Part shown: in pieces, positions 2,227 to 20,343 of the stretch
Position numbering within the stretch: position 1 is the stretch's first letter
Layout: every line of letters begins with the position of its first letter
Virus record (IMG/VR): IMGVR_UViG_3300025937_000005
Length of the DNA: 20,646 bases
From: an uncultured virus (IMG/VR IMGVR_UViG_3300025937_000005)
Lineage: Duplodnaviria; Heunggongvirae; Uroviricota; Caudoviricetes
Reading direction: 5' to 3' (one strand)
The notes under the pieces: generated by a model
Database searches by the model: none
Told to the model about the DNA's origin: nothing
The model's input: the letters and a program-made list of their open reading frames with translations, nothing else
Program-made: the position numbers and the translations under genes

Positions 2227-4395
2227 TTGAGTGATACAGACAATGAGGTTCTATCTGATAATGCGATAATAGAGAAATTCCAAAACTTTTTTAATGATTT
2301 TACCATGTTCGGGGCCGGGACAATCTATCCCTACTTTGAGCAGATACAATCACTGCTTTACAAACAGGACAAGGTTGTAACAATAAGGCATATTGACCTT
2401 GATGCTGAACTGTTGAATTTCTTCTTTAACAATAAGGATGTGGAATACAACCTGAAACTTTTAACCCAGGCCGCCAAAAATGTCTACCATGAGTATTATC
2501 CTGATGACCCCGATTGGGAAAATGTGCAGGCCAAACTGTCCATAGATGACAAGGCGTTACTGACAAACATGCGGGACATAAACGTGTCCCACCGCAGCAA
2601 ACTAATATCGTTTGACTCAACCATTGTTTCCAAGTCGGAGCGCAAATCCACTTTCTCACAAAAGGTTTTCAAGTGTTCTGTCTGCGGTGAGTTATACCCC
2701 AAGAAGCAAAACAGGTGTGTAAATGAGGATTGCGGCACAAAGACAATCAACGTTTCCATTTCCGATTCCAAACTAACTGACTGTGAGTATATCGAATGCC
2801 AGGAAAGGCAGGAGGATTTGCTGTCCAATGCCACCATTCCAACCTCCATTGACGTGAAGGTATATGGGAATTTGGTGGGCAAGTTCAAGCCCGGTGACAA
2901 TGTTCGTGTTGTTGGCATCATAAAGATACAGAAGACAACGACAAGTGATGCTGTATTGAACAGGTCAGATGATGAGGAGTTTTCATCTGACTTGCTGTTT
3001 GACATTGTGATGGAGGCGCACAACATACAACTTCTGTCATCACAGCAAAACTCCATAATAACAAACCCGGCCAACTATTTATCGGATGAGGATGTGGCTG
3101 CCATCCACAAACTCAGAAAGAAATATTCTAACGACGAGGATTTGATGAATGTTCTAGTTAATTCATTTGCCTCCCACATCTACGGACATGAGAGGATTAA
3201 GGAGGCCATTCTACTGCAAAACATTGGCTCCGTTGACATACAATTGGATGAAGGGGTAAGGAACCGGGGCAAGATAAACATCTTTTTGGTGGGAGACCCA
3301 GGTGTTACAAAGACAAGGTTGTTGCAGGCAGCAGCCCGCATATCCATAAACGGACAGATGGCATCAGGTAAGGGGGCTTCGGGTGTTGGGCTTACCGCAT
3401 CAGTGGAATCAGATGGAGGTAGTGGTAAGGGAGTAAAGAAACTGAGGATAGGCGCTGCTGTCCTGGCTCACAATGGTCATCTATCTTTGGATGAATACTC
3501 AAACATCCATGAGGATGATAGGGCATATCTGCTTGACTGCATGGAATCCGGGACTTTCAGGGTAAACAAGGGTGGTATTAATGCAGTGCTGAATGCCGAC
3601 GCTTCCTTTTTGGTGGCAACCAATCCCGATTCAGGCAAATACAACAGGTTCAACACACTCTTTGAAAACGTCACAATCTCTGATCAGTTGTTTTCCCGTT
3701 TTCATATCACTTTCGTCATGCCCGATATTGTCAACAGGGAACTTGATGAAAAAATAGCCATGCATATAATGTCTTCCTATGACAACTCCATACTAAAAAG
3801 GCACGCTGACAAGTTAAGACAGCCATCTGACATTAAGGCCAAAATACCAAATGACCTGTTGGTAAAATATCTCTTATACGCAAAGATAAACAACACACAG
3901 GATATCCGCATAACAAACGAGGCAATGGAAATATTCATGGCGTTTTACCATGAGATTCGCACACCGGAAAAGGCGGCCGACATTACGGCAACCCCACGTC
4001 AGTTGGAGGGAATGCTAAAGTTTGGGATAGCAAGGTGCAGGGCAATGCTCCGTAACTCCGTAACGGGAGAGGACGCAATGAGAACAGTTTCAGCCCTTTC
4101 ATACGGATACCACACATGCGGCATGATAACAACAACGGGGGGCATGAACCTAACAGCGGAGTATTCAAAGCCATTGGACAAGATAAAGCCGTTGCAGGCT
4201 TTCCGTCTGGTCATGCTCAACCTGACAAAAGACAACACCATCCCAGTGAAAAAGGAAACTGTTATTCTGGAACTGGTGGAAAAGGCAAAAATGGAAACAT
4301 CAAAGGCCTATGAGTTGTTCAACAAGGAGTATGACAGCAACAGGCTGCTTCAAAACGAAAAGAGGGAATTTCTTTTGATGGATAAATATTCTTAG
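2227..4395 (+). CDS. mcm: MCM replicative helicase (archaeal/viral type)
   Basis: C4 zinc finger (CSVC...CVNEDC), OB-fold KPGDNVRVVGI, IYGHERIKEAILL, Walker A LVGDPGVTKT, SGVGLTASV, Walker B LSLDEY, MESGT, arginine finger LFSRF, sensor-2 TPRQLEG. Confidence 0.97.
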   Translation: MSDTDNEVLSDNAIIEKFQNFFNDFTMFGAGTIYPYFEQIQSLLYKQDKVVTIRHIDLDAELLNFFFNNKDVEYNLKLLTQAAKNVYHEYYPDDPDWENVQAKLSIDDKALLTNMRDINVSHRSKLISFDSTIVSKSERKSTFSQKVFKCSVCGELYPKKQNRCVNEDCGTKTINVSISDSKLTDCEYIECQERQEDLLSNATIPTSIDVKVYGNLVGKFKPGDNVRVVGIIKIQKTTTSDAVLNRSDDEEFSSDLLFDIVMEAHNIQLLSSQQNSIITNPANYLSDEDVAAIHKLRKKYSNDEDLMNVLVNSFASHIYGHERIKEAILLQNIGSVDIQLDEGVRNRGKINIFLVGDPGVTKTRLLQAAARISINGQMASGKGASGVGLTASVESDGGSGKGVKKLRIGAAVLAHNGHLSLDEYSNIHEDDRAYLLDCMESGTFRVNKGGINAVLNADASFLVATNPDSGKYNRFNTLFENVTISDQLFSRFHITFVMPDIVNRELDEKIAMHIMSSYDNSILKRHADKLRQPSDIKAKIPNDLLVKYLLYAKINNTQDIRITNEAMEIFMAFYHEIRTPEKAADITATPRQLEGMLKFGIARCRAMLRNSVTGEDAMRTVSALSYGYHTCGMITTTGGMNLTAEYSKPLDKIKPLQAFRLVMLNLTKDNTIPVKKETVILELVEKAKMETSKAYELFNKEYDSNRLLQNEKREFLLMDKYS

Positions 4396-4412: not shown

Positions 4413-4673
4413 TCAATCCCTATTTCTAATTACCATATATTTTTCATTCCACTTGTTTTGTTTGTAGAACTTTGCAATCTTGATGTGGCGGCATTCACCC
4501 TTGTAGTTCAACCCGATACAAAACCTTTCACAGTTGCATATCCATTCATCAGTCCGGCGGGACTGAAAGACTTCCCACTTGGGTATCTTTGATTTACGGG
4601 AACGGGATGGTATGTAATATTTGTCTAATTCAACATTGTATTCAACAGTCTGGATTTCCTTTTGTGTTATCAT
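4413..4673 (-). CDS. SWIM zinc-finger protein
   Basis: WICNC-x11-CRHIK matches the CxC...CxH SWIM pattern and is preceded by YYIPSRS. Confidence 0.75.
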   Translation of the reverse strand: MITQKEIQTVEYNVELDKYYIPSRSRKSKIPKWEVFQSRRTDEWICNCERFCIGLNYKGECRHIKIAKFYKQNKWNEKYMVIRNRD

Positions 4674-6508: not shown

Positions 6509-7130
6509 TTCATCTTATTCCGGGGCCAACGACTCAGACAGGACAACCAGGGCCAAATCCATACTACAGAAAATAATCCCACAGCAGATGAATGAAAGGG
6601 GATTCAAGACAACCATAAAGACCGAATGCCCGGCCATCTTTATAGACCCCAAACCTGTTGCGTATCACCTGGATTTGGGTGTCCTGTTCCGCTCCAAAAC
6701 GGAATACGACTTTTACCATTTTTTTGCAGTGGAGATAGACGACTCAGCCCACGCCACAATAAGGCATGAAAGAAAGGATGAGCAGCGTGACGATTCCTTT
6801 TTCACCTCAAAGGGGATAGTAACCTGCCGCATACCAATCGACAAGATATTTGAGGAAAAAAAGGATGAATCAAGATTTTTCGACAAGTGGATTTACAACG
6901 ACATTTTAACTGCCTATATCATAACCCCGGCCGACAACACCAAACAGGAGATATGGTCAGAACTCAACAGGAAATTCGCCATCGAACTAAAGGAAAACTC
7001 ATCAACCCAATGCTCCAAGTGTGACCACAAGGCCCATCAGCATTCATTGACAGGCTGCGAGTTTAGGCTGACCAACAAATCAAAGATGAAATGCAACTGC
7101 AAGAATCCATATTTCAGGTCAGATGAGTAG
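6495..7130 (+). CDS. DUF559/Vsr-like PD-(D/E)xK endonuclease with a C-terminal Cys/His cluster
   Basis: YHLDLG...FAVEIDDSAH...KDEQRDD...KGIVTCRI pattern; CSKCDH...H...C...CNC tail. Confidence 0.7.
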   Translation: MSVYNSSYSGANDSDRTTRAKSILQKIIPQQMNERGFKTTIKTECPAIFIDPKPVAYHLDLGVLFRSKTEYDFYHFFAVEIDDSAHATIRHERKDEQRDDSFFTSKGIVTCRIPIDKIFEEKKDESRFFDKWIYNDILTAYIITPADNTKQEIWSELNRKFAIELKENSSTQCSKCDHKAHQHSLTGCEFRLTNKSKMKCNCKNPYFRSDE

Positions 7131-7655
7131 TTTATCATTCACAGGTTTATAGGCATATGTCCTCATTTCTTTTATTTCTTTTAAACTTGTGAATATTCTT
7201 GTTATGAAATATGTTTTAGAATCATCAGTATTTAGGTAAAGTTCCAGTTTTCCCGCTCTTGTGAATTTCACTGAACGTATATTTTCAATATTGAGATAGT
7301 CATCAACCACCACATACCAGTATTGCAGTTTCTTTCCCTTTGTTTTTGGTTTTGCGAACTTGAACGCCAGCACGATATAACGCCAGGGATAGACATTGAA
7401 CATATGTAATATGTCCCTGCACCTCATTAACTGGTCATTGGGGATATAGCAGGCATCAGATAAGGTGGACTTACACTCCATTGAGAAAAGCATCTGTCTA
7501 CCACTGCTGGTTGCCACCACATCAGGCAGCCCGGTTGATGAACCTCCTAACCTACGGGCCGTCCATCCACTGTTATTGAAGTCATCCACTATATGTTTCT
7601 CAAAAGTGTAACCCCTCTCACGTCTTCGGTTAGTTGTTGACGGGGACAGTGGCAG
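7119..7655 (-). CDS. hjc: Archaeal Holliday junction resolvase (thaumarchaeal-like)
   Basis: RRRERGYTFEKHIV...GWTARRLG.SS..LPDVVA...SMECKS...IPNDQL...IVLAFKF. The conserved N-terminal G..E helix lies upstream of the track GTG (7589); the frame is open to CTG 7655, bounded by TGA at 7658-7656. Confidence 0.85.
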   Translation of the reverse strand: MPLSPSTTNRRRERGYTFEKHIVDDFNNSGWTARRLGGSSTGLPDVVATSSGRQMLFSMECKSTLSDACYIPNDQLMRCRDILHMFNVYPWRYIVLAFKFAKPKTKGKKLQYWYVVVDDYLNIENIRSVKFTRAGKLELYLNTDDSKTYFITRIFTSLKEIKEMRTYAYKPVNDKLLI

Positions 7656-12926: not shown

Positions 12927-13505
12927 ATGCTTGACCTAAAACTTGAAAAGGTAAACATCAACACACTCATACCAAGAGAGGACAACCCTAATGAGATGAC
13001 GGAGGAAAGGCTGGAATCACTAAAACACTCCCTTGACACCTTTCAATACATACAGCCCATCATAGTTGACCAGCACAACAACATAGTGGACGGCAACCAT
13101 CGTTGGAAGGCAATGATGCAGATGGATGATATTGGTGTAACTGACGAAATCGATGTTGTCCGGGTCAACCTGGAAACGGAGGAGGACTTGAAACTGCTGT
13201 CCCAAACCATGAACAAGTTGCGTGGCTCCCACAACCTGAAAAAAGACATATCAGAGATGGAAATATTGATGGGCCACAACCCGGATGAACTGAAATCACT
13301 GTTGGGATTTGATGAAACCGGGCTGGACTTGATGAGACAGCAGGCCGCAGAGGAAGAACAACGAATATCCAATATTTTAACAAAAGATGAGAATAATGAA
13401 AACATCAATAATGATGATGAAAATGATGAAAATGATGATGAACAGAAGGAATTAGACGAGATTATAACAAATCATAAATGCCCAAAGTGCAATTATGAAT
13501 GGTAG
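12927..13505 (+). CDS. ParB/Srx N-terminal domain protein with a C-terminal CPKC knuckle
   Basis: INTLIP.EDNPNEM, SLDTF..IQPIIVD, IVDGNHRWKA, MNKLRG, HKCPKCNYEW. Confidence 0.88.
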   Translation: MLDLKLEKVNINTLIPREDNPNEMTEERLESLKHSLDTFQYIQPIIVDQHNNIVDGNHRWKAMMQMDDIGVTDEIDVVRVNLETEEDLKLLSQTMNKLRGSHNLKKDISEMEILMGHNPDELKSLLGFDETGLDLMRQQAAEEEQRISNILTKDENNENINNDDENDENDDEQKELDEIITNHKCPKCNYEW

Positions 13506-14515
13506 TAGATAAAAAACCAAATGTAATCTCTTTTTTCTGTGGTTGTGGTGGTTCATCACTTGGTTATAAAAGGGCTGAATGCAATATCCTGTTGGCATCT
13601 GACTGGGAGAAAAAGGCATTGGATATCTATAAACATAACTTTCCAGAAACACAGATATTTCAGGCTGATATTCGTGTTGTTAACTTGGATGTTATAACTA
13701 ATCTAACGGGAATAAAAAAAGGTGAACTGGATATATTGGATGGTTCACCACCATGCACACCATTTTCTACATGTGGATTACGTGAACAGGGATGGGGTAA
13801 ATCCTATATTCATTCAGCAGACACAAAACCACAAAAAGCTGATGACCTTTTCTTTGAGTTTATTCGTCTTATAGATGAATTAAAACCAAAAACCTTTGTG
13901 GCTGAAAATGTATCAGGATTGATAAAGGGAACAGCAAAGGGATATTATAAGCAGATTATACAGCAAATGAAAGATATTGGATATAATACACAGAGTTTTT
14001 TATTAAATGCCGCTGATTATGAAGTTCCACAAAGAAGAGAAAGAGTCATAATTATTGGGTTTCGGAATGACATTAAGCAAGATGAATCTATTGTCTTAAA
14101 AAAGTTTCCATATCGAATTAGTTTTAGAAAGGCTGTAGAAGGGTTAAAAAATTCTGATGATGAACTAGAACATGCAAGAAAATTATCAAGAAGTTTTCTG
14201 AAACAATACATTTCAATATTACCAATGGGAAAAAACCTTTCAAGATTTCATAAAAAAGGCCATCATTTTAACACAAAAAGAGAATCATTTGACAAACCAA
14301 TTTCCACTATAATAGCATCAAGTTTGTCATTGGTTCATCCCAGTGAAAACAGGTATTTAACACTGGCAGAAGTAAAGCGGTGTGCCACGTTTTCTGATGA
14401 CTTTTGGTTTCCATCAATTAAGGCTGGTTGTGAACGCATTGGCAATTCAGTACCACCAAACCTGATGAAGCATATTGCCAAGTATGTCATTAAACGTGCA
14501 AATTTGGACAAATAA
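13499..14515 (+). CDS. DNA (cytosine-5)-methyltransferase
   Basis: Motif I SFFCGCGG, IV DGSPPCTPFS, VI AENVSG, VIII PQRRER, IX RYLT.AE, X IGNSVPP. Confidence 0.96.
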   Translation: MVVDKKPNVISFFCGCGGSSLGYKRAECNILLASDWEKKALDIYKHNFPETQIFQADIRVVNLDVITNLTGIKKGELDILDGSPPCTPFSTCGLREQGWGKSYIHSADTKPQKADDLFFEFIRLIDELKPKTFVAENVSGLIKGTAKGYYKQIIQQMKDIGYNTQSFLLNAADYEVPQRRERVIIIGFRNDIKQDESIVLKKFPYRISFRKAVEGLKNSDDELEHARKLSRSFLKQYISILPMGKNLSRFHKKGHHFNTKRESFDKPISTIIASSLSLVHPSENRYLTLAEVKRCATFSDDFWFPSIKAGCERIGNSVPPNLMKHIAKYVIKRANLDK

Positions 14516-15425: not shown

Positions 15426-15467
15426 TATATTCCCAATTTCCTGAATTACCCTCATATTATTATAAAC

Positions 15468-15500
15468 TTATATACCTCGGTAACTAGTTAATTAAGTAAG
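15468..15500 (+). promoter_or_regulatory. TATA-like box followed by an octamer array
   Basis: TTATATA-CC-TCGGTAAC TAGTTAAT TAAGTAAG; ATG at 15509. Confidence 0.6.
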
Positions 15501-16212: not shown

Positions 16213-17232
16213 ATGTCGGAAAATTCCAACTTAAATGAACCTACTACTCCTGTCAACATTCTAAACAAGTCAACAGACGCACCAAAACAGGGCCACTACA
16301 AGCCACCCCGCAAATATCCAAAGGAAGACCTGGTAATCCATCATATGTATCAGTTGACCACCCTGGAAAAGCAGAAGGTGAAAAACCTGTTTAGAGAGGC
16401 ATATATCAAGGGTTTCAGGATGGACCAGATACCCGAATTCATCTATATCAAGTCCAAACTAAACGTCACCTATGGGTTGGTATGCTCACTAAAGGAGCAG
16501 CAGAAGATAGACGACGGCTACTGGTTCTATGAGTTGGCCCGCGATTCCACCGCCTATTTATCTTGCTATCGCCTGGCCATAGACAAACTGGACCAACTGG
16601 AGAAAGAAATGTGGCTCCTAATCATGAACCCCAAGGTTGAGACATCAGTAAGGGTAATGGCCACAAAGGAAATTCATTCCATAATAAAGACGGGTGTTCT
16701 ATTGCTTAGAGACCTGCCCTTTATAACCAACCTGTCAAAGTTCTACGATTTATCGGAACTGGACCCCGACAAAAAAGGACTAAAAAAACTACAGTATGTG
16801 AAGGATAGGAATAACCCCAACAGTTATGACCCCCTAAAAAAGGAGTTTAACAAGTCGGATTTCGACGGGCTTAACTCTTCCCTGGTCCACAACATCATAG
16901 ACAACATAACAGACAAGAAAAGAATAGACAACGTGGACGCAGACGTAATAGAGGAAATGCAGTCCCAAATCCAGACATTGGGATATGACACCGACCCCGA
17001 CATACTGGAAAAGAAGGAAGCCCACCGCAAATCCATAGAGGACAAATACATAGAACAGAACCTGGCCACCCTGGACAAGGAGTTATCCAATGTCAAATCC
17101 GAAGACGAATCGAAGGTTATCAAAGCCGCCCAGGACTACAGAAAGACAATGGATTACTTAGACCAGATAGTTTCACCGGAGCATAGAGATGCAATCACCA
17201 GGATTAGGTCAATTACAGAAGATAAACAGTGA
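16213..17232 (+). CDS. Putative terminase small subunit
   Basis: Helical protein with an HTH-like N-terminal part, directly upstream of and overlapping TerL; the call is mainly positional. Confidence 0.5.
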   Translation: MSENSNLNEPTTPVNILNKSTDAPKQGHYKPPRKYPKEDLVIHHMYQLTTLEKQKVKNLFREAYIKGFRMDQIPEFIYIKSKLNVTYGLVCSLKEQQKIDDGYWFYELARDSTAYLSCYRLAIDKLDQLEKEMWLLIMNPKVETSVRVMATKEIHSIIKTGVLLLRDLPFITNLSKFYDLSELDPDKKGLKKLQYVKDRNNPNSYDPLKKEFNKSDFDGLNSSLVHNIIDNITDKKRIDNVDADVIEEMQSQIQTLGYDTDPDILEKKEAHRKSIEDKYIEQNLATLDKELSNVKSEDESKVIKAAQDYRKTMDYLDQIVSPEHRDAITRIRSITEDKQ

Positions 17233-18913
17233 ATATGGCCAGTATATGAAACAGAAGTATGCCCATATACTACAGCCCCCTATTACAAAATACGAGAAAG
17301 ACCCTGAAATAAAAGAAACAATACATGAGAAGCGCAAGCGCCTTTTCAACAAGGACACCGGTTCCCTGCAACTAAACCTAAAGAAAGTCCCGTTTTGGAT
17401 TTGGGATGAAAGCCTGCATGAAACCTTAAGAAAGCAAACAGGTGACATGTGTTGTTTCGTAGACATGATAGGTAGACCAGTAAACCCCAAGACAGGAGAG
17501 GAAAACCCGTTGTTCCCCTACGAATATGACATCATCAAGGCCTTGTTTATCCCATCATTTGCCAACCCCGGTAATGATGTAAGGAGGCACAAGCATATCT
17601 GGATTAAGAAGGCCAGGGGGGCAGGAATCACAGAGTTCTTTATCTACTTCATGCTTTATTTGCCCTGCGCCTTTCCGGAGGTTTTTTATGACACACAACA
17701 AGCGATCATAACCGGTATCAGGAAAACAACCGCCATCAAGGTAATGCAGAGGATGAAGCATAAACTATACCAAAAGTTGGGGATTGTCACAGACTTTAAT
17801 GAATCCGTTCTCGACATCAACGGCTGCATGATTGAGGCCTATCCCGCAAACAATCCCGACACAATTAGGGGACTGCATAGGATGAAGGGCATCCTGTTCG
17901 ACGAGGCCGATTCCATCTCCATAAACATGATAGATGAAATGCTGTCGGCCATTGAAGGATATATTGCCAAGAACAACCCCTACATCATCATAAACGGCAC
18001 GGCAAAGAAGATAGGCGGCATGATGCAGCAGATAGAGGAGCAGCAACAGGAAACCTGCAACTACAAGCGTCTTTTCATATTGGCTGACAAACTGTTGGGA
18101 TACATCTACACACAGGAGGATTTGGATTTGGCCTCCACATCACCCTATTACCGCCAGGAGTATTGGGGAGAATACAAAGGAGAAAAGGGCAACCTGTTCC
18201 CGCAGGAATTCTTGGATTATGCCGCTGGGCTTACTGATGAGTTAGTAATAAGGGATACAATGACTGGTGAGGTTCGCCGCACAATATCCAGGCCGCCAAA
18301 GGAACTGACAGTCCAGGATGTCATATCCGACTATAGATTTCTGGGCCCATCATACAGAACCAGCGTGGGGACGGACCCCGCCTTCAACTCATCCATGTTT
18401 GCGTCCGTAGTCTACAAGGAGATAGAGGGGCATATCTACGCGGTAAGGGAACAGGAAATCCTGGCCCCCTCTTCCGAACAGGGTATAGAAATGCAGAAAA
18501 GGCTGATATACCAGGACTATCCCTCCATTGCCCCTAAAATCTGGATAGACATGTCAGCCACGTTGTTTATCCGCTCACTAAAGAACGACATAAGTGAAGA
18601 CCCCGACTACCACAACATGAGTCCCGACCTACTAAAAGAGTCAATGTATTCACCCATGGGGATGACTGTGTGCCCCATCCCCTTCAACAAATACGGCGAT
18701 AGGATGAACTACCACTGGCGCCGGCTTATGGAGTTGGGAGTTTACCACATAGACAAGAAGGTTACTCCCTACCTTTGGATATCAATGAACTCAGCCAAGT
18801 TTGAGGAAAAGACAAGCAAGTTCAACAAGCACGACACCGCCAAGAACGACATATTTGATGCCGGCCGTTTGGCGACATGCTCTTATAAAATAGCAAACAT
18901 AGGCGTATTGTAA
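17189..18913 (+). CDS. terL: Terminase large subunit
   Basis: LFPYE, Walker A HIWIKKARGAGITE, IRG, Walker B ILFDEAD, coupling motif INGT, RQEY.GEY, nuclease VGTDPAF...NDIFDA. The start may be ATG 17246. Confidence 0.92.
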   Translation: MQSPGLGQLQKINSEYGQYMKQKYAHILQPPITKYEKDPEIKETIHEKRKRLFNKDTGSLQLNLKKVPFWIWDESLHETLRKQTGDMCCFVDMIGRPVNPKTGEENPLFPYEYDIIKALFIPSFANPGNDVRRHKHIWIKKARGAGITEFFIYFMLYLPCAFPEVFYDTQQAIITGIRKTTAIKVMQRMKHKLYQKLGIVTDFNESVLDINGCMIEAYPANNPDTIRGLHRMKGILFDEADSISINMIDEMLSAIEGYIAKNNPYIIINGTAKKIGGMMQQIEEQQQETCNYKRLFILADKLLGYIYTQEDLDLASTSPYYRQEYWGEYKGEKGNLFPQEFLDYAAGLTDELVIRDTMTGEVRRTISRPPKELTVQDVISDYRFLGPSYRTSVGTDPAFNSSMFASVVYKEIEGHIYAVREQEILAPSSEQGIEMQKRLIYQDYPSIAPKIWIDMSATLFIRSLKNDISEDPDYHNMSPDLLKESMYSPMGMTVCPIPFNKYGDRMNYHWRRLMELGVYHIDKKVTPYLWISMNSAKFEEKTSKFNKHDTAKNDIFDAGRLATCSYKIANIGVL

Positions 18914-19242
18914 TGAAGTGCAGTCACCCAATATGCGTTGAGCAAAGAAGCAAGACACACCTGAAAACATGTGATTGGTACAAGAAACACATGAGATGCA
19001 TGAAGTGCCAGGTGATGTGGCCCCGTCCACCACACATAGACGTGAAGCATCCTGCCCCCGGCCACCATCCACGCTGTCCACACTGCAACAGCCCGTTAAG
19101 GCTAAGGCCCCCACACCAAACAAGACGATACATACACATGGGCAAGAAAAAAATGCGAACTGAATGCATATACATGACAGACTCAAAGTTCATAGAAAAG
19201 ATAAAGGCCACCTACCATTGTTGCGCAATTGCCAAATCCTGA
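18913..19242 (+). CDS. Small Cys-rich protein, third paralog
   Basis: MKCSHPIC...WYKKHMRCMKC...RCPHCNSPLRLRP; TAATG overlap with terL. Confidence 0.7.
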   Translation: MKCSHPICVEQRSKTHLKTCDWYKKHMRCMKCQVMWPRPPHIDVKHPAPGHHPRCPHCNSPLRLRPPHQTRRYIHMGKKKMRTECIYMTDSKFIEKIKATYHCCAIAKS

Positions 19243-19591
19243 AGTGGACAGCAGCATGTCAGTAACCCCACTGCCAAATCCAAAAGACAACATATCCGAC
19301 AAAGAAAGGGAATCACTGTTCCCAAACCTAATCAGGCTACTAAAACAGGAGTATGACAAGTTACTTGATGAGCAGTATTACTCCCACTTTTCATTCCTTG
19401 AAACCCAGACGATAATAGACATACTTTCAGTGTTTAGTGCGGAGGTGATAAGGGAAGCCTCAATAATAGAGGGCAACCCCACCACTTCAAAAGCCAGGCT
19501 GCGATTATTGTCTGAAGCCGTTGCCAAACAGATAAGAAACACATGCAACAACTATGCCAACGATATGATAAACAATGAGGATATGAAATAA
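19229..19591 (+). CDS. Hypothetical helical protein
   Basis: 120 aa; the TTG start overlaps the upstream ORF. Confidence 0.65.
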   Translation: MPNPEVDSSMSVTPLPNPKDNISDKERESLFPNLIRLLKQEYDKLLDEQYYSHFSFLETQTIIDILSVFSAEVIREASIIEGNPTTSKARLRLLSEAVAKQIRNTCNNYANDMINNEDMK

Positions 19592-19593
19592 CC

Positions 19594-19687
19594 TGGGTAG
19601 GTGGGAGTTGAACCCACGCTTTTATCTAGAAATATTTTGTAGAGGTTTACCTGACGGAAACGCTCTCTACTAGCACCCCGCAACCCA
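19594..19687 (-). ncRNA. tRNA-like RNA A (94 nt), no canonical anticodon arm
   Basis: Acceptor TGGGTTG/CTACCCA (6/7 pairs), T arm GTGGG-TTCAACT-CCCAC, internal hairpin GTAGAG...CTCTAC; TTTATATT box at 19715-19708. Confidence 0.65.
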
Positions 19688-19707
19688 TTCTTAATTTAAT
19701 TATTAAT

Positions 19708-19715
19708 AATATAAA
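19708..19715 (-). promoter_or_regulatory. TATA box for RNA A
   Basis: AAAA-TTTATATT, beginning 28 nt upstream of the first acceptor-stem base. Confidence 0.6.
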
Positions 19716-19720
19716 TTTTA

Positions 19721-19775
19721 GGAGGGGACGGGATTTGAACCCGTGACCTGGTGGCCAAACCTGCGCTACCCCTCG
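19721..19775 (-). ncRNA. tRNA-like RNA B (55-nt mini-tRNA)
   Basis: CGAGGGG TA GCGCAGGTTTGGCCACC AGGTC ACGGG TTCAAAT CCCGT CCCCTCC: 6-bp acceptor with C1:C72, U8A9, an AGGUC variable loop and a perfect T arm; about one arm is missing. Confidence 0.7.
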
Positions 19776-19779
19776 ACTT

Positions 19780-19811
19780 GGCCCGAACAGGTTAATTACG
19801 TCTGTCCGGCC
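19780..19811 (-). other. GC-rich hairpin directly 5' of RNA B
   Basis: GGCCGGACAG-ACGTAATTAAC-CTGTTC(G)GGCC, 10 pairs with one bulge. Confidence 0.6.
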
Positions 19812-19834
19812 CCACCTATTATTCTACCCCTATC

Positions 19835-19888
19835 AATATAAACCTTTTTACTTAATTAACTAGTTAATTTGGTAGTTAAGTTTAAATA
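19835..19888. promoter_or_regulatory. Bidirectional promoter with a central octamer array
   Basis: Minus: TAGTTAAT TAAGTAAA AAGG TTTATATT (TATA 19842-19835). Plus: TAATTAAC TAGTTAAT TTGGTAGT TAAG TTTAAATA (19881-19888), ATG at 19922. Confidence 0.65.
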
Positions 19889-19921
19889 ATAATCAGCTAA
19901 AAAGAAAGTGAGAAAATAACA

Positions 19922-20107
19922 ATGGGTGACATAAAAATAACGGACTTGTATATGATACATGAACTGGATGACGTAAAGGATAAGTTTCAGGTATTCGACA
20001 CTAAGGAGGGTAGGGTATTGCAGTCAATGGTATTGACCAGGGATGAACTTATGAAACTTGATGATGAAATAGACAAGATAATCATAAGGAAGGCAACAAA
20101 AGAATGA
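19922..20107 (+). CDS. Hypothetical protein
   Basis: 61 aa; TATA box upstream and ATGA overlap downstream. Confidence 0.65.
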   Translation: MGDIKITDLYMIHELDDVKDKFQVFDTKEGRVLQSMVLTRDELMKLDDEIDKIIIRKATKE

Positions 20108-20343
20108 TAAAGTTTCTGATAATGTATGAGGATGGGTTGGGCATGCTGGCCCACCGGATGACGAAAGAAATGAACGGGGTGCAGAGAAACGGCGGCACAG
20201 TCACCTCCACAAACATATTCAAGGACAACCCCAACCTTCTAACCGGTGTAATCTTTTACGATGAATCCAAAAAGGACAGGATAAACGGCCAGGTGTTAGA
20301 GAAGGAACAAAAGGAGATTATGGAGGCGCAACCACCAAAATGA
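20104..20343 (+). CDS. Hypothetical protein
   Basis: 79 aa; ATGA overlaps on both sides. Confidence 0.65.
   Translation: MIKFLIMYEDGLGMLAHRMTKEMNGVQRNGGTVTSTNIFKDNPNLLTGVIFYDESKKDRINGQVLEKEQKEIMEAQPPK

Follow-up and report, generated by a model that had tools for sequence, protein, structure and literature searches.

The window analyzed here, meaning the whole stretch of 20,646 nucleotides, belongs to a tailed archaeal virus from soil and rhizosphere metagenomes and is, at 20.6 kb, only part of the genome, contigs of this virus being as long as 64-83 kb. It has ORFs coding for an MCM helicase (2227-4395), a Hjc-type resolvase (7119-7589, minus strand), a C5 cytosine methyltransferase (13499-14515) and the large terminase subunit TerL (17189-18913), as well as for a thymidylate kinase, a MazG/dUTPase-like enzyme and a ParB-like protein. 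The region is present in 24 sequencing runs, every one labelled rhizosphere or soil, and the contigs of relatives that were fetched are likewise from soil and rhizosphere metagenomes. Relatives of TerL number 63, of which those above 45% identity all stem from metagenome assemblies; in species genomes only three copies were found (30-36% identity), divided between two contigs of a single Nitrososphaeraceae MAG. No host signal came from the MCM helicase, the cellular homologs of which are approximately 30% identical. Nitrososphaeraceae is the likely host family, and this assignment is supported by the likeness to tRNA-Val of an element described below.

A 109-aa ORF (18913-19242) lies between the terminase gene and the gene at 19229-19591. 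It has no counterpart in relatives with 65% TerL identity, where the terminase gene and the homolog of 19229-19591 are adjacent, and it is a second small variable insert within the packaging block. Contig L001 has an insertion of some 590 bp (2693-3281 of that contig) directly after its terminase gene, placed between window positions 18913 and 18896-19257, the contig being otherwise 99% identical. Its 172-aa product is an HNH endonuclease (PF13392, E = 1.4e-7), and the insertion has the appearance of a homing-endonuclease gene that is present in some genomes and absent from others.

The last conserved gene of the packaging block (19229-19591, plus strand) is separated from the next plus-strand gene (19922-20107) by a gap of 330 bp. 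Within this gap, on the minus strand, are two elements, here called A (19594-19687) and B (19721-19775), with the stop codon of the upstream gene 3 nt from the 3′ end of A. A sequence-only reading had proposed that B forms part of a cassette, in the order TATA-like box, hairpin, 4-nt linker and tRNA-like B, and this layout is borne out on the minus strand. The TATA-like box TTTATATT (19842-19835) stands upstream of the leader hairpin (19812-19780) and B, and the linker AAGT (19779-19776) joins the latter two. The distance from the box to the hairpin is 26-30 nt and sets a predicted transcript start near 19816-19812, in agreement with the start proposed earlier, and with this spacing the hairpin would be transcribed. 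A second TTTATATT box (19715-19708, minus strand) is located 28 nt upstream of the 5′ acceptor strand of A, and a third copy (4703-4696) precedes a minus-strand ORF (4673..4413), its distance from the ATG being 30 nt. As matches to TTTAWATW in the window (6) do not exceed expectation (6.1), it is only the placement of the octamer that is suggestive and, the gap also being AT-rich, the promoters are plausible predictions.

Some other repeats were noted in this region. An AT-rich imperfect palindrome (19836-19887) with 26-nt arms that are 73% complementary and the core TTAATTAACTAGTTAATT sits between divergent TATA-like boxes on the minus (19842-19835) and plus (19881-19888) strands. A 45-nt stretch near 15455-15499, upstream of ORF 15509, resembles it (84% identity), and the two may be a shared operator or promoter module. 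An apparent duplication of the 5′ part of B (AGGGGTAG at 19831-19824 and 19773-19766) was not significant, with 104/2000 and 243/2000 shuffles scoring as well.

The leader hairpin has 8 + 2 bp and an 11-nt loop. In the RNAfold minimum free energy (MFE) structure, 19809-19802 pairs with 19790-19783 (8 bp, including one G.U) and 19812-19811 with 19781-19780, a G.G mismatch separating the two runs. On its own the hairpin folds at -16.8 kcal/mol (z = -2.19), with 6 of 200 shuffles folding at least as well, a predicted stability that appears modestly unusual, and its G.U pair exists only on minus-strand RNA. For the whole 101-nt stretch 19817-19717, the MFE structure (-38.8 kcal/mol) consists of the hairpin, the 4-nt linker and a three-helix tRNA-like fold, and the fold with the inner acceptor, as read previously, makes up approximately 94% of the ensemble; the energy of this stretch is not unusual (z = -1.32, 23/200 shuffles as good). 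An alternative four-arm fold has as its acceptor strand GGUGGGG (19816-19810), the opening heptamer of the predicted transcript. This pairs at 6/7 positions with the 3′ acceptor strand, and the fold as a whole (-37.1 kcal/mol) is 1.7 above the MFE and accounts for some 4.5% of the ensemble; with such an outer acceptor no leader would be left for removal.

Element B is 55 nt in length, and that it is tRNA-derived is not in doubt. Its acceptor stem pairs at 6/7 positions (19774-19769 with 19727-19722, 6 bp), leaving C19775 and C19721 unpaired at 1:72, and is accompanied by a canonical T arm with a perfect 5-bp stem (19744-19740 with 19732-19728) and the loop TTCAAAT (19739-19733), while T19720 would be the discriminator. 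The 24-nt centre (19768-19745) has no anticodon arm and only a possible 4-bp mini-stem, GGCC/GGUC. The C:C mismatch had been noted from the letters, with a deleted anticodon arm as one of two ways to read the core, and both are confirmed here. The Rfam tRNA model RF00005 aligns from end to end (19775-19720) at 26.3 bits vs a cut-off of 29 (E = 0.0042 in an 801-nt search), the D and anticodon arms collapsing to inserts of 0 and 8 nt. With regard to tRNA membership, B has a 6/7 acceptor and a 5-bp T arm with consensus loop and is without D and anticodon arms. About 20 nt, comprising the D-stem 3′ strand and the complete anticodon arm, are missing, and B therefore cannot decode. The acceptor/T-arm fold, of the type used by RNase P and tRNase Z, is predicted and ensemble-dominant, though with a z of only -1.32 and the 1:72 mismatch.

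No Rfam family reached its gathering threshold anywhere in the window, and ARAGORN at default settings made no tRNA call in it; calls obtained at 60-80% of the default thresholds had poor and inconsistent structures and were discarded. Membership of the mascRNA-menRNA family (RF01684) was rejected, given that B scores 14.7 bits (E = 6.5), below the cut-off of 42.5. Removal of single segments of 6-69 nt from 19835-19705 produced 0/4128 ARAGORN calls, which argues against an intron-bearing gene for B. A bulge-helix-bulge was likewise looked for, and the hairpin is without 3-nt bulges.

The closest host counterpart of B is tRNA-Val(UAC). Among the 30 tRNAs of genome G001, this tRNA (locus L092) gave the best global match, with 49/56 positions identical in a gap-rich alignment and 26/30 in the 3′ part, whereas over the 5′ 26 nt tRNA-Leu equals tRNA-Val (20/26 each). 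Compared with either tRNA, B lacks both the D-stem 3′ strand and all of the anticodon arm. At its 3′ end, 26/28 nt are identical to tRNA-Val(UAC), and these 28 nt match tRNA-Val(UAC) with 2-3 mismatches in 88/151 Nitrososphaeraceae genomes, the reversed control pattern giving no match in the same search. The count takes in one unpublished genome (G036), and the claim is independent of it. The 5′ 23 nt of B had no match at up to 3 mismatches in any of the 151 host-family genomes. Two recurrent differences between B and tRNA-Val concern one base pair of the T stem, which is U-A in the host and C-G in B; pairing is kept and the changes are compensatory. The Nitrososphaeraceae tRNA-Val(UAC) thus agrees with B at 6/7 acceptor and 4/5 variable-loop positions, has an identical T loop and is one compensatory pair apart in the T stem. 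It differs in that B has lost the D-stem strand and anticodon arm, has C rather than G at position 1 and T rather than A as discriminator, and has a predicted transcript leader of approximately 40 nt.

Element A was found with a minihelix scan, which seeks a T arm followed by a complementary acceptor strand. It has the acceptor TGGGTTG/CTACCCA (6/7, with U.U at 6:67), the T arm GTGGG-TTCAACT-CCCAC, a D-arm-like stretch and a 63-nt non-canonical core. Rfam picks up no more than the T arm (13.1 bits to the tmRNA/tRNA clan). Around the anticodon stem A somewhat resembles a host tRNA-Thr, but a usable anticodon loop is lacking, and its 3′ 27 nt at up to 3 mismatches were found in 0/151 host-family genomes. 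Single-segment removals of 6-69 nt again gave 0/4128 ARAGORN calls, which argues against an intron-bearing gene for A as well. When 438 kb of related viral sequence was scanned for minihelices, the only GC-rich hits were A, B and their identical copies; about a dozen AT-rich hits look like chance.

Synteny with relatives stops at the gene 19229-19591. The cassette is unchanged in contigs L001 and L002 (100% over 366 nt), which are 99-100% identical overall, and three other metagenome runs show no differences across 19549-20200. In three relatives with 65% TerL identity (L005-L007), the homolog of gene 19229-19591 is retained at 69-70% protein identity up to its last codons; at the site of the cassette there is instead a reverse-strand ORF of 333 aa with no family match. 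The hairpin, whose conservation bears on the proposed cassette, is therefore unchanged in near-identical contigs and absent from the 65% relatives. One run (X15) carries both haplotypes, with and without the cassette. Closer relatives exist at the protein level (TerL 73-75%, MCM 79-82% identity), the 75% TerL being encoded on a 38-kb contig and the 82% MCM on one of 235 kb. The 330-bp junction is strain-specific and variable, lying between the packaging genes and the next gene block, and the cassette marks a recombination-prone junction beside the terminase block.

A covariance model of hairpin plus B scored 132.7 bits on itself and had no other match in 84 viral sources (425 kb) at E up to 10, while in 41 host-family genomes, including the unpublished G036, its hits did not exceed 29 bits, the level of ordinary tRNAs. 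ARAGORN found no tRNA in 14 close loci nor, with introns allowed, in 86 related sequences (438 kb). The loci of 10 relatives (55.8 kb) gave nothing with Rfam at E up to 1; as even the identical B copies of L001 and L002 were missed, weak hits at this search size are hidden by the filters. A blastn search of 19400-20100 against a phage collection gave no match. In IMG/VR, the pattern of the 3′ end of B had no hits, TerL as a single protein no relatives, the TerL alignment only two relatives at 30%, and the alignment of the gene upstream of the cassette none. A gapped pattern for a full-length parent tRNA had no hits in the genome collection.

With somewhat better than even confidence, we take B to be a tRNA-gene remnant that lies beside the more scrambled A in a strain-specific junction after the packaging genes. 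This reading rests on the end-to-end alignment with RF00005 and on tRNA-Val being both the 3′ match and the best global match; the absence of ARAGORN calls, the sub-cut-off Rfam score, the missing anticodon arm and the null result of segment removal indicate that B is non-functional as a tRNA. The restriction of the cassette to near-identical contigs also counts in favour of a remnant. B would be what remains of a tRNA gene, closest to tRNA-Val(UAC), carried by a soil thaumarchaeal tailed virus; approximately 20 nt (D-stem 3′ strand and anticodon arm) would have gone and the acceptor/T-arm top half been retained. Junctions of this kind gather viral tRNA genes, tRNA-gene fragments and insertions. 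The hairpin would be mere sequence between a surviving promoter and the remnant. If the promoter fires, B would probably be a substrate of the RNase P, tRNase Z and CCA-adding enzyme of the host, in keeping with established substrate rules and its intact top half, and the leader of about 40 nt would then be freed as a by-product rather than as a product under selection.

Partial and non-canonical tRNA genes left by mobile elements are known in archaea from the cases described in PMC9897764. Like the tRNA-gene fragments and pseudo-tRNAs of prokaryotic and viral genomes, B is tRNA-derived, fails tRNA detectors and occupies a variable spot prone to mobile elements, and the host tRNA it resembles is one that integrative elements target too. 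It differs from them in that integration usually leaves a 3′ or a 5′ piece, whereas B keeps both acceptor strands and the T arm and loses the middle, and in that B has its own TATA-like box and a structured leader.

Three features argue against a mere remnant. A and B keep 11/12 top-half base pairs and the consensus T loop with their cores lost or scrambled, while neutral decay is expected to affect all arms equally; the T-stem differences of B from host tRNA-Val are compensatory (U-A to C-G); and the same TATA octamer stands at promoter distance from each element. All three are seen in a single lineage. The selective retention of the acceptor and T arm and the octamer shared by A and B nevertheless keep functional readings alive, and it is conceivable, if unlikely, that the virus expresses two anticodon-less top-half mimics from promoters of their own, either to have the hairpin small RNA cut out and stabilized by the RNase P, tRNase Z and CCA machinery of the host or as decoys for host factors that read the acceptor/T-arm.

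The acceptor/T-arm half of a tRNA is the part read by RNase P, tRNase Z and the CCA-adding enzyme. A and B may be promoter-driven minihelix RNAs that mimic this half and are themselves the products, engaging these enzymes or acceptor-targeting defence toxins as decoys, sponges or stable CCA-tagged RNAs. Such a role, which we consider unlikely, is favoured by the architecture common to both elements (6/7 acceptor, 5-bp T stem, consensus T loop, no usable anticodon loop), the identical octamer before each, the compensatory change in the T stem of B and their being the only GC-rich minihelix hits in the related sequence. However, the mimics are predicted from a single lineage and from sequence only, each acceptor stem has a mismatch, the elements are absent from relatives, and no comparable viral decoy is known in archaea, none having been found in the literature.

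The cassette had originally been read as a possible device for releasing a small RNA, in which a promoter would give a precursor of hairpin plus B and an RNase P cut at 19776/19775 would free a hairpin RNA of about 40 nt directed at some target in host or virus. Given what is generally known of RNase P, a cut near this position is plausible, since the top half of B is intact. The MFE structure is exactly hairpin, linker and mini-tRNA with the inner acceptor dominating the ensemble, the TATA box is at a suitable 26-30 nt, and the G.U pair ties the hairpin to minus-strand RNA. Complementarity of the hairpin and leader to possible targets was, on the other hand, nowhere above chance, whether within the 20.6 kb of the window or in 61 Nitrososphaeraceae genomes, where the best E of 0.078 belonged to scattered matches. 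The modest rarity of the hairpin stability, the lack of a homolog in the 84 viral sources and the low score with the mascRNA model also stand against it. A small RNA of this kind under selection is thus improbable, and a dedicated release function for B is unsupported.

Several known systems resemble this design. Archaeal cells use such structures to release a neighbouring small RNA, as described for the Haloferax t-elements in PMC4326828; these have, like B, a tRNA-like fold beside another RNA and the top half on which RNase P and tRNase Z depend, but what defines them is proven processing and participation in the maturation of neighbouring RNAs (5S rRNA), while B is a predicted fold. The mascRNA/menRNA family (RF01684) and the TMERs of murine gammaherpesvirus 68 also have a non-decoding tRNA-like element of approximately 55-60 nt joined to an RNA that is set free by tRNA-processing enzymes, and the TMERs are virus-encoded, though all of these are eukaryotic, unlike the archaeal virus carrying B. 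A TMER begins with its tRNA-like part, the hairpins being freed by tRNase Z, so that the B cassette, with its hairpin first, would resemble a TMER in reverse.

With regard to expression, the sole contig from an RNA library, a soil metatranscriptome (run X24), spans 19923-20200 and lies outside the cassette. It is identical to the small plus-strand genes that follow the cassette and stops at 19923, directly beyond the first letter of their ATG (19922-19924); DNA carry-over may have occurred in that library. Small RNAs are missed by standard libraries.

A further alternative is that B, and perhaps A, is an attP site or integration scar, the 3′ part of a host tRNA having been carried for integration. 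In the set described in PMC6563490, thaumarchaeal elements favour the 3′ parts of tRNA genes for integration and have short att sites (median 17 bp), and 39/68 of the integrated elements target tRNA genes. The resemblance of the 3′ end of B to tRNA-Val(UAC) is consistent with this, as are partial 3′ copies of the same tRNA at four loci in three host-family genomes (G101, G079 and G087). We nevertheless consider such a site improbable as well. The longest exact identity with a sampled tRNA-Val is 13 nt, the 3′ 25 nt of B occur at up to 1 mismatch in 0/201 class genomes sampled, and the closest 28-nt match among the 151 family genomes has 2 mismatches, although the true host may be unsampled. 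In addition, the discriminator is T vs A, an attP has no need for a complementary 5′ acceptor strand, and the 3′ end of A is unmatched in the 151 genomes. No integrase family was identified among the 26 ORFs of the 20.6-kb window, most of the viral genome lying outside it.

The partial copies themselves (G101:C49, G101:C131, G079:C8 and G087:C91) each consist of a solitary last ~23 nt of tRNA-Val(UAC) preceded by a 7-bp inverted repeat, and look like att duplications of elements integrated into the tRNA-Val(UAC) gene.

That B belongs to a functional tRNA gene which is intron-bearing, split, permuted or a 96-nt cloverleaf with the GGUGGGG acceptor is highly improbable: introns are common in host tRNAs (14/30 tRNA genes of G001 exceed 80 nt) and GGUGGGG stands at the predicted start in a four-arm fold close in energy to the MFE, but no bulge-helix-bulge and no arm with an anticodon-type 7-nt loop is visible, the outer-acceptor fold is a minor part of the ensemble, single-segment removal yields no call and ARAGORN calls appear only at 70-80% of default with poor structures.

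To our knowledge, tRNA-like processing signals have so far been found in haloarchaeal rRNA operons, mammalian long non-coding RNAs and a herpesvirus. Were the two elements indeed expressed as mimics, they would constitute the first such cassette, for processing or as decoys, to be encoded by a virus of Archaea. If functional, the cassette would extend tRNA-like processing signals to archaeal viruses and would offer a natural design for small-RNA release in archaea. Even as a tRNA-gene remnant, the reading preferred here, B would mean that soil viruses of ammonia-oxidising archaea have carried or captured tRNA genes.
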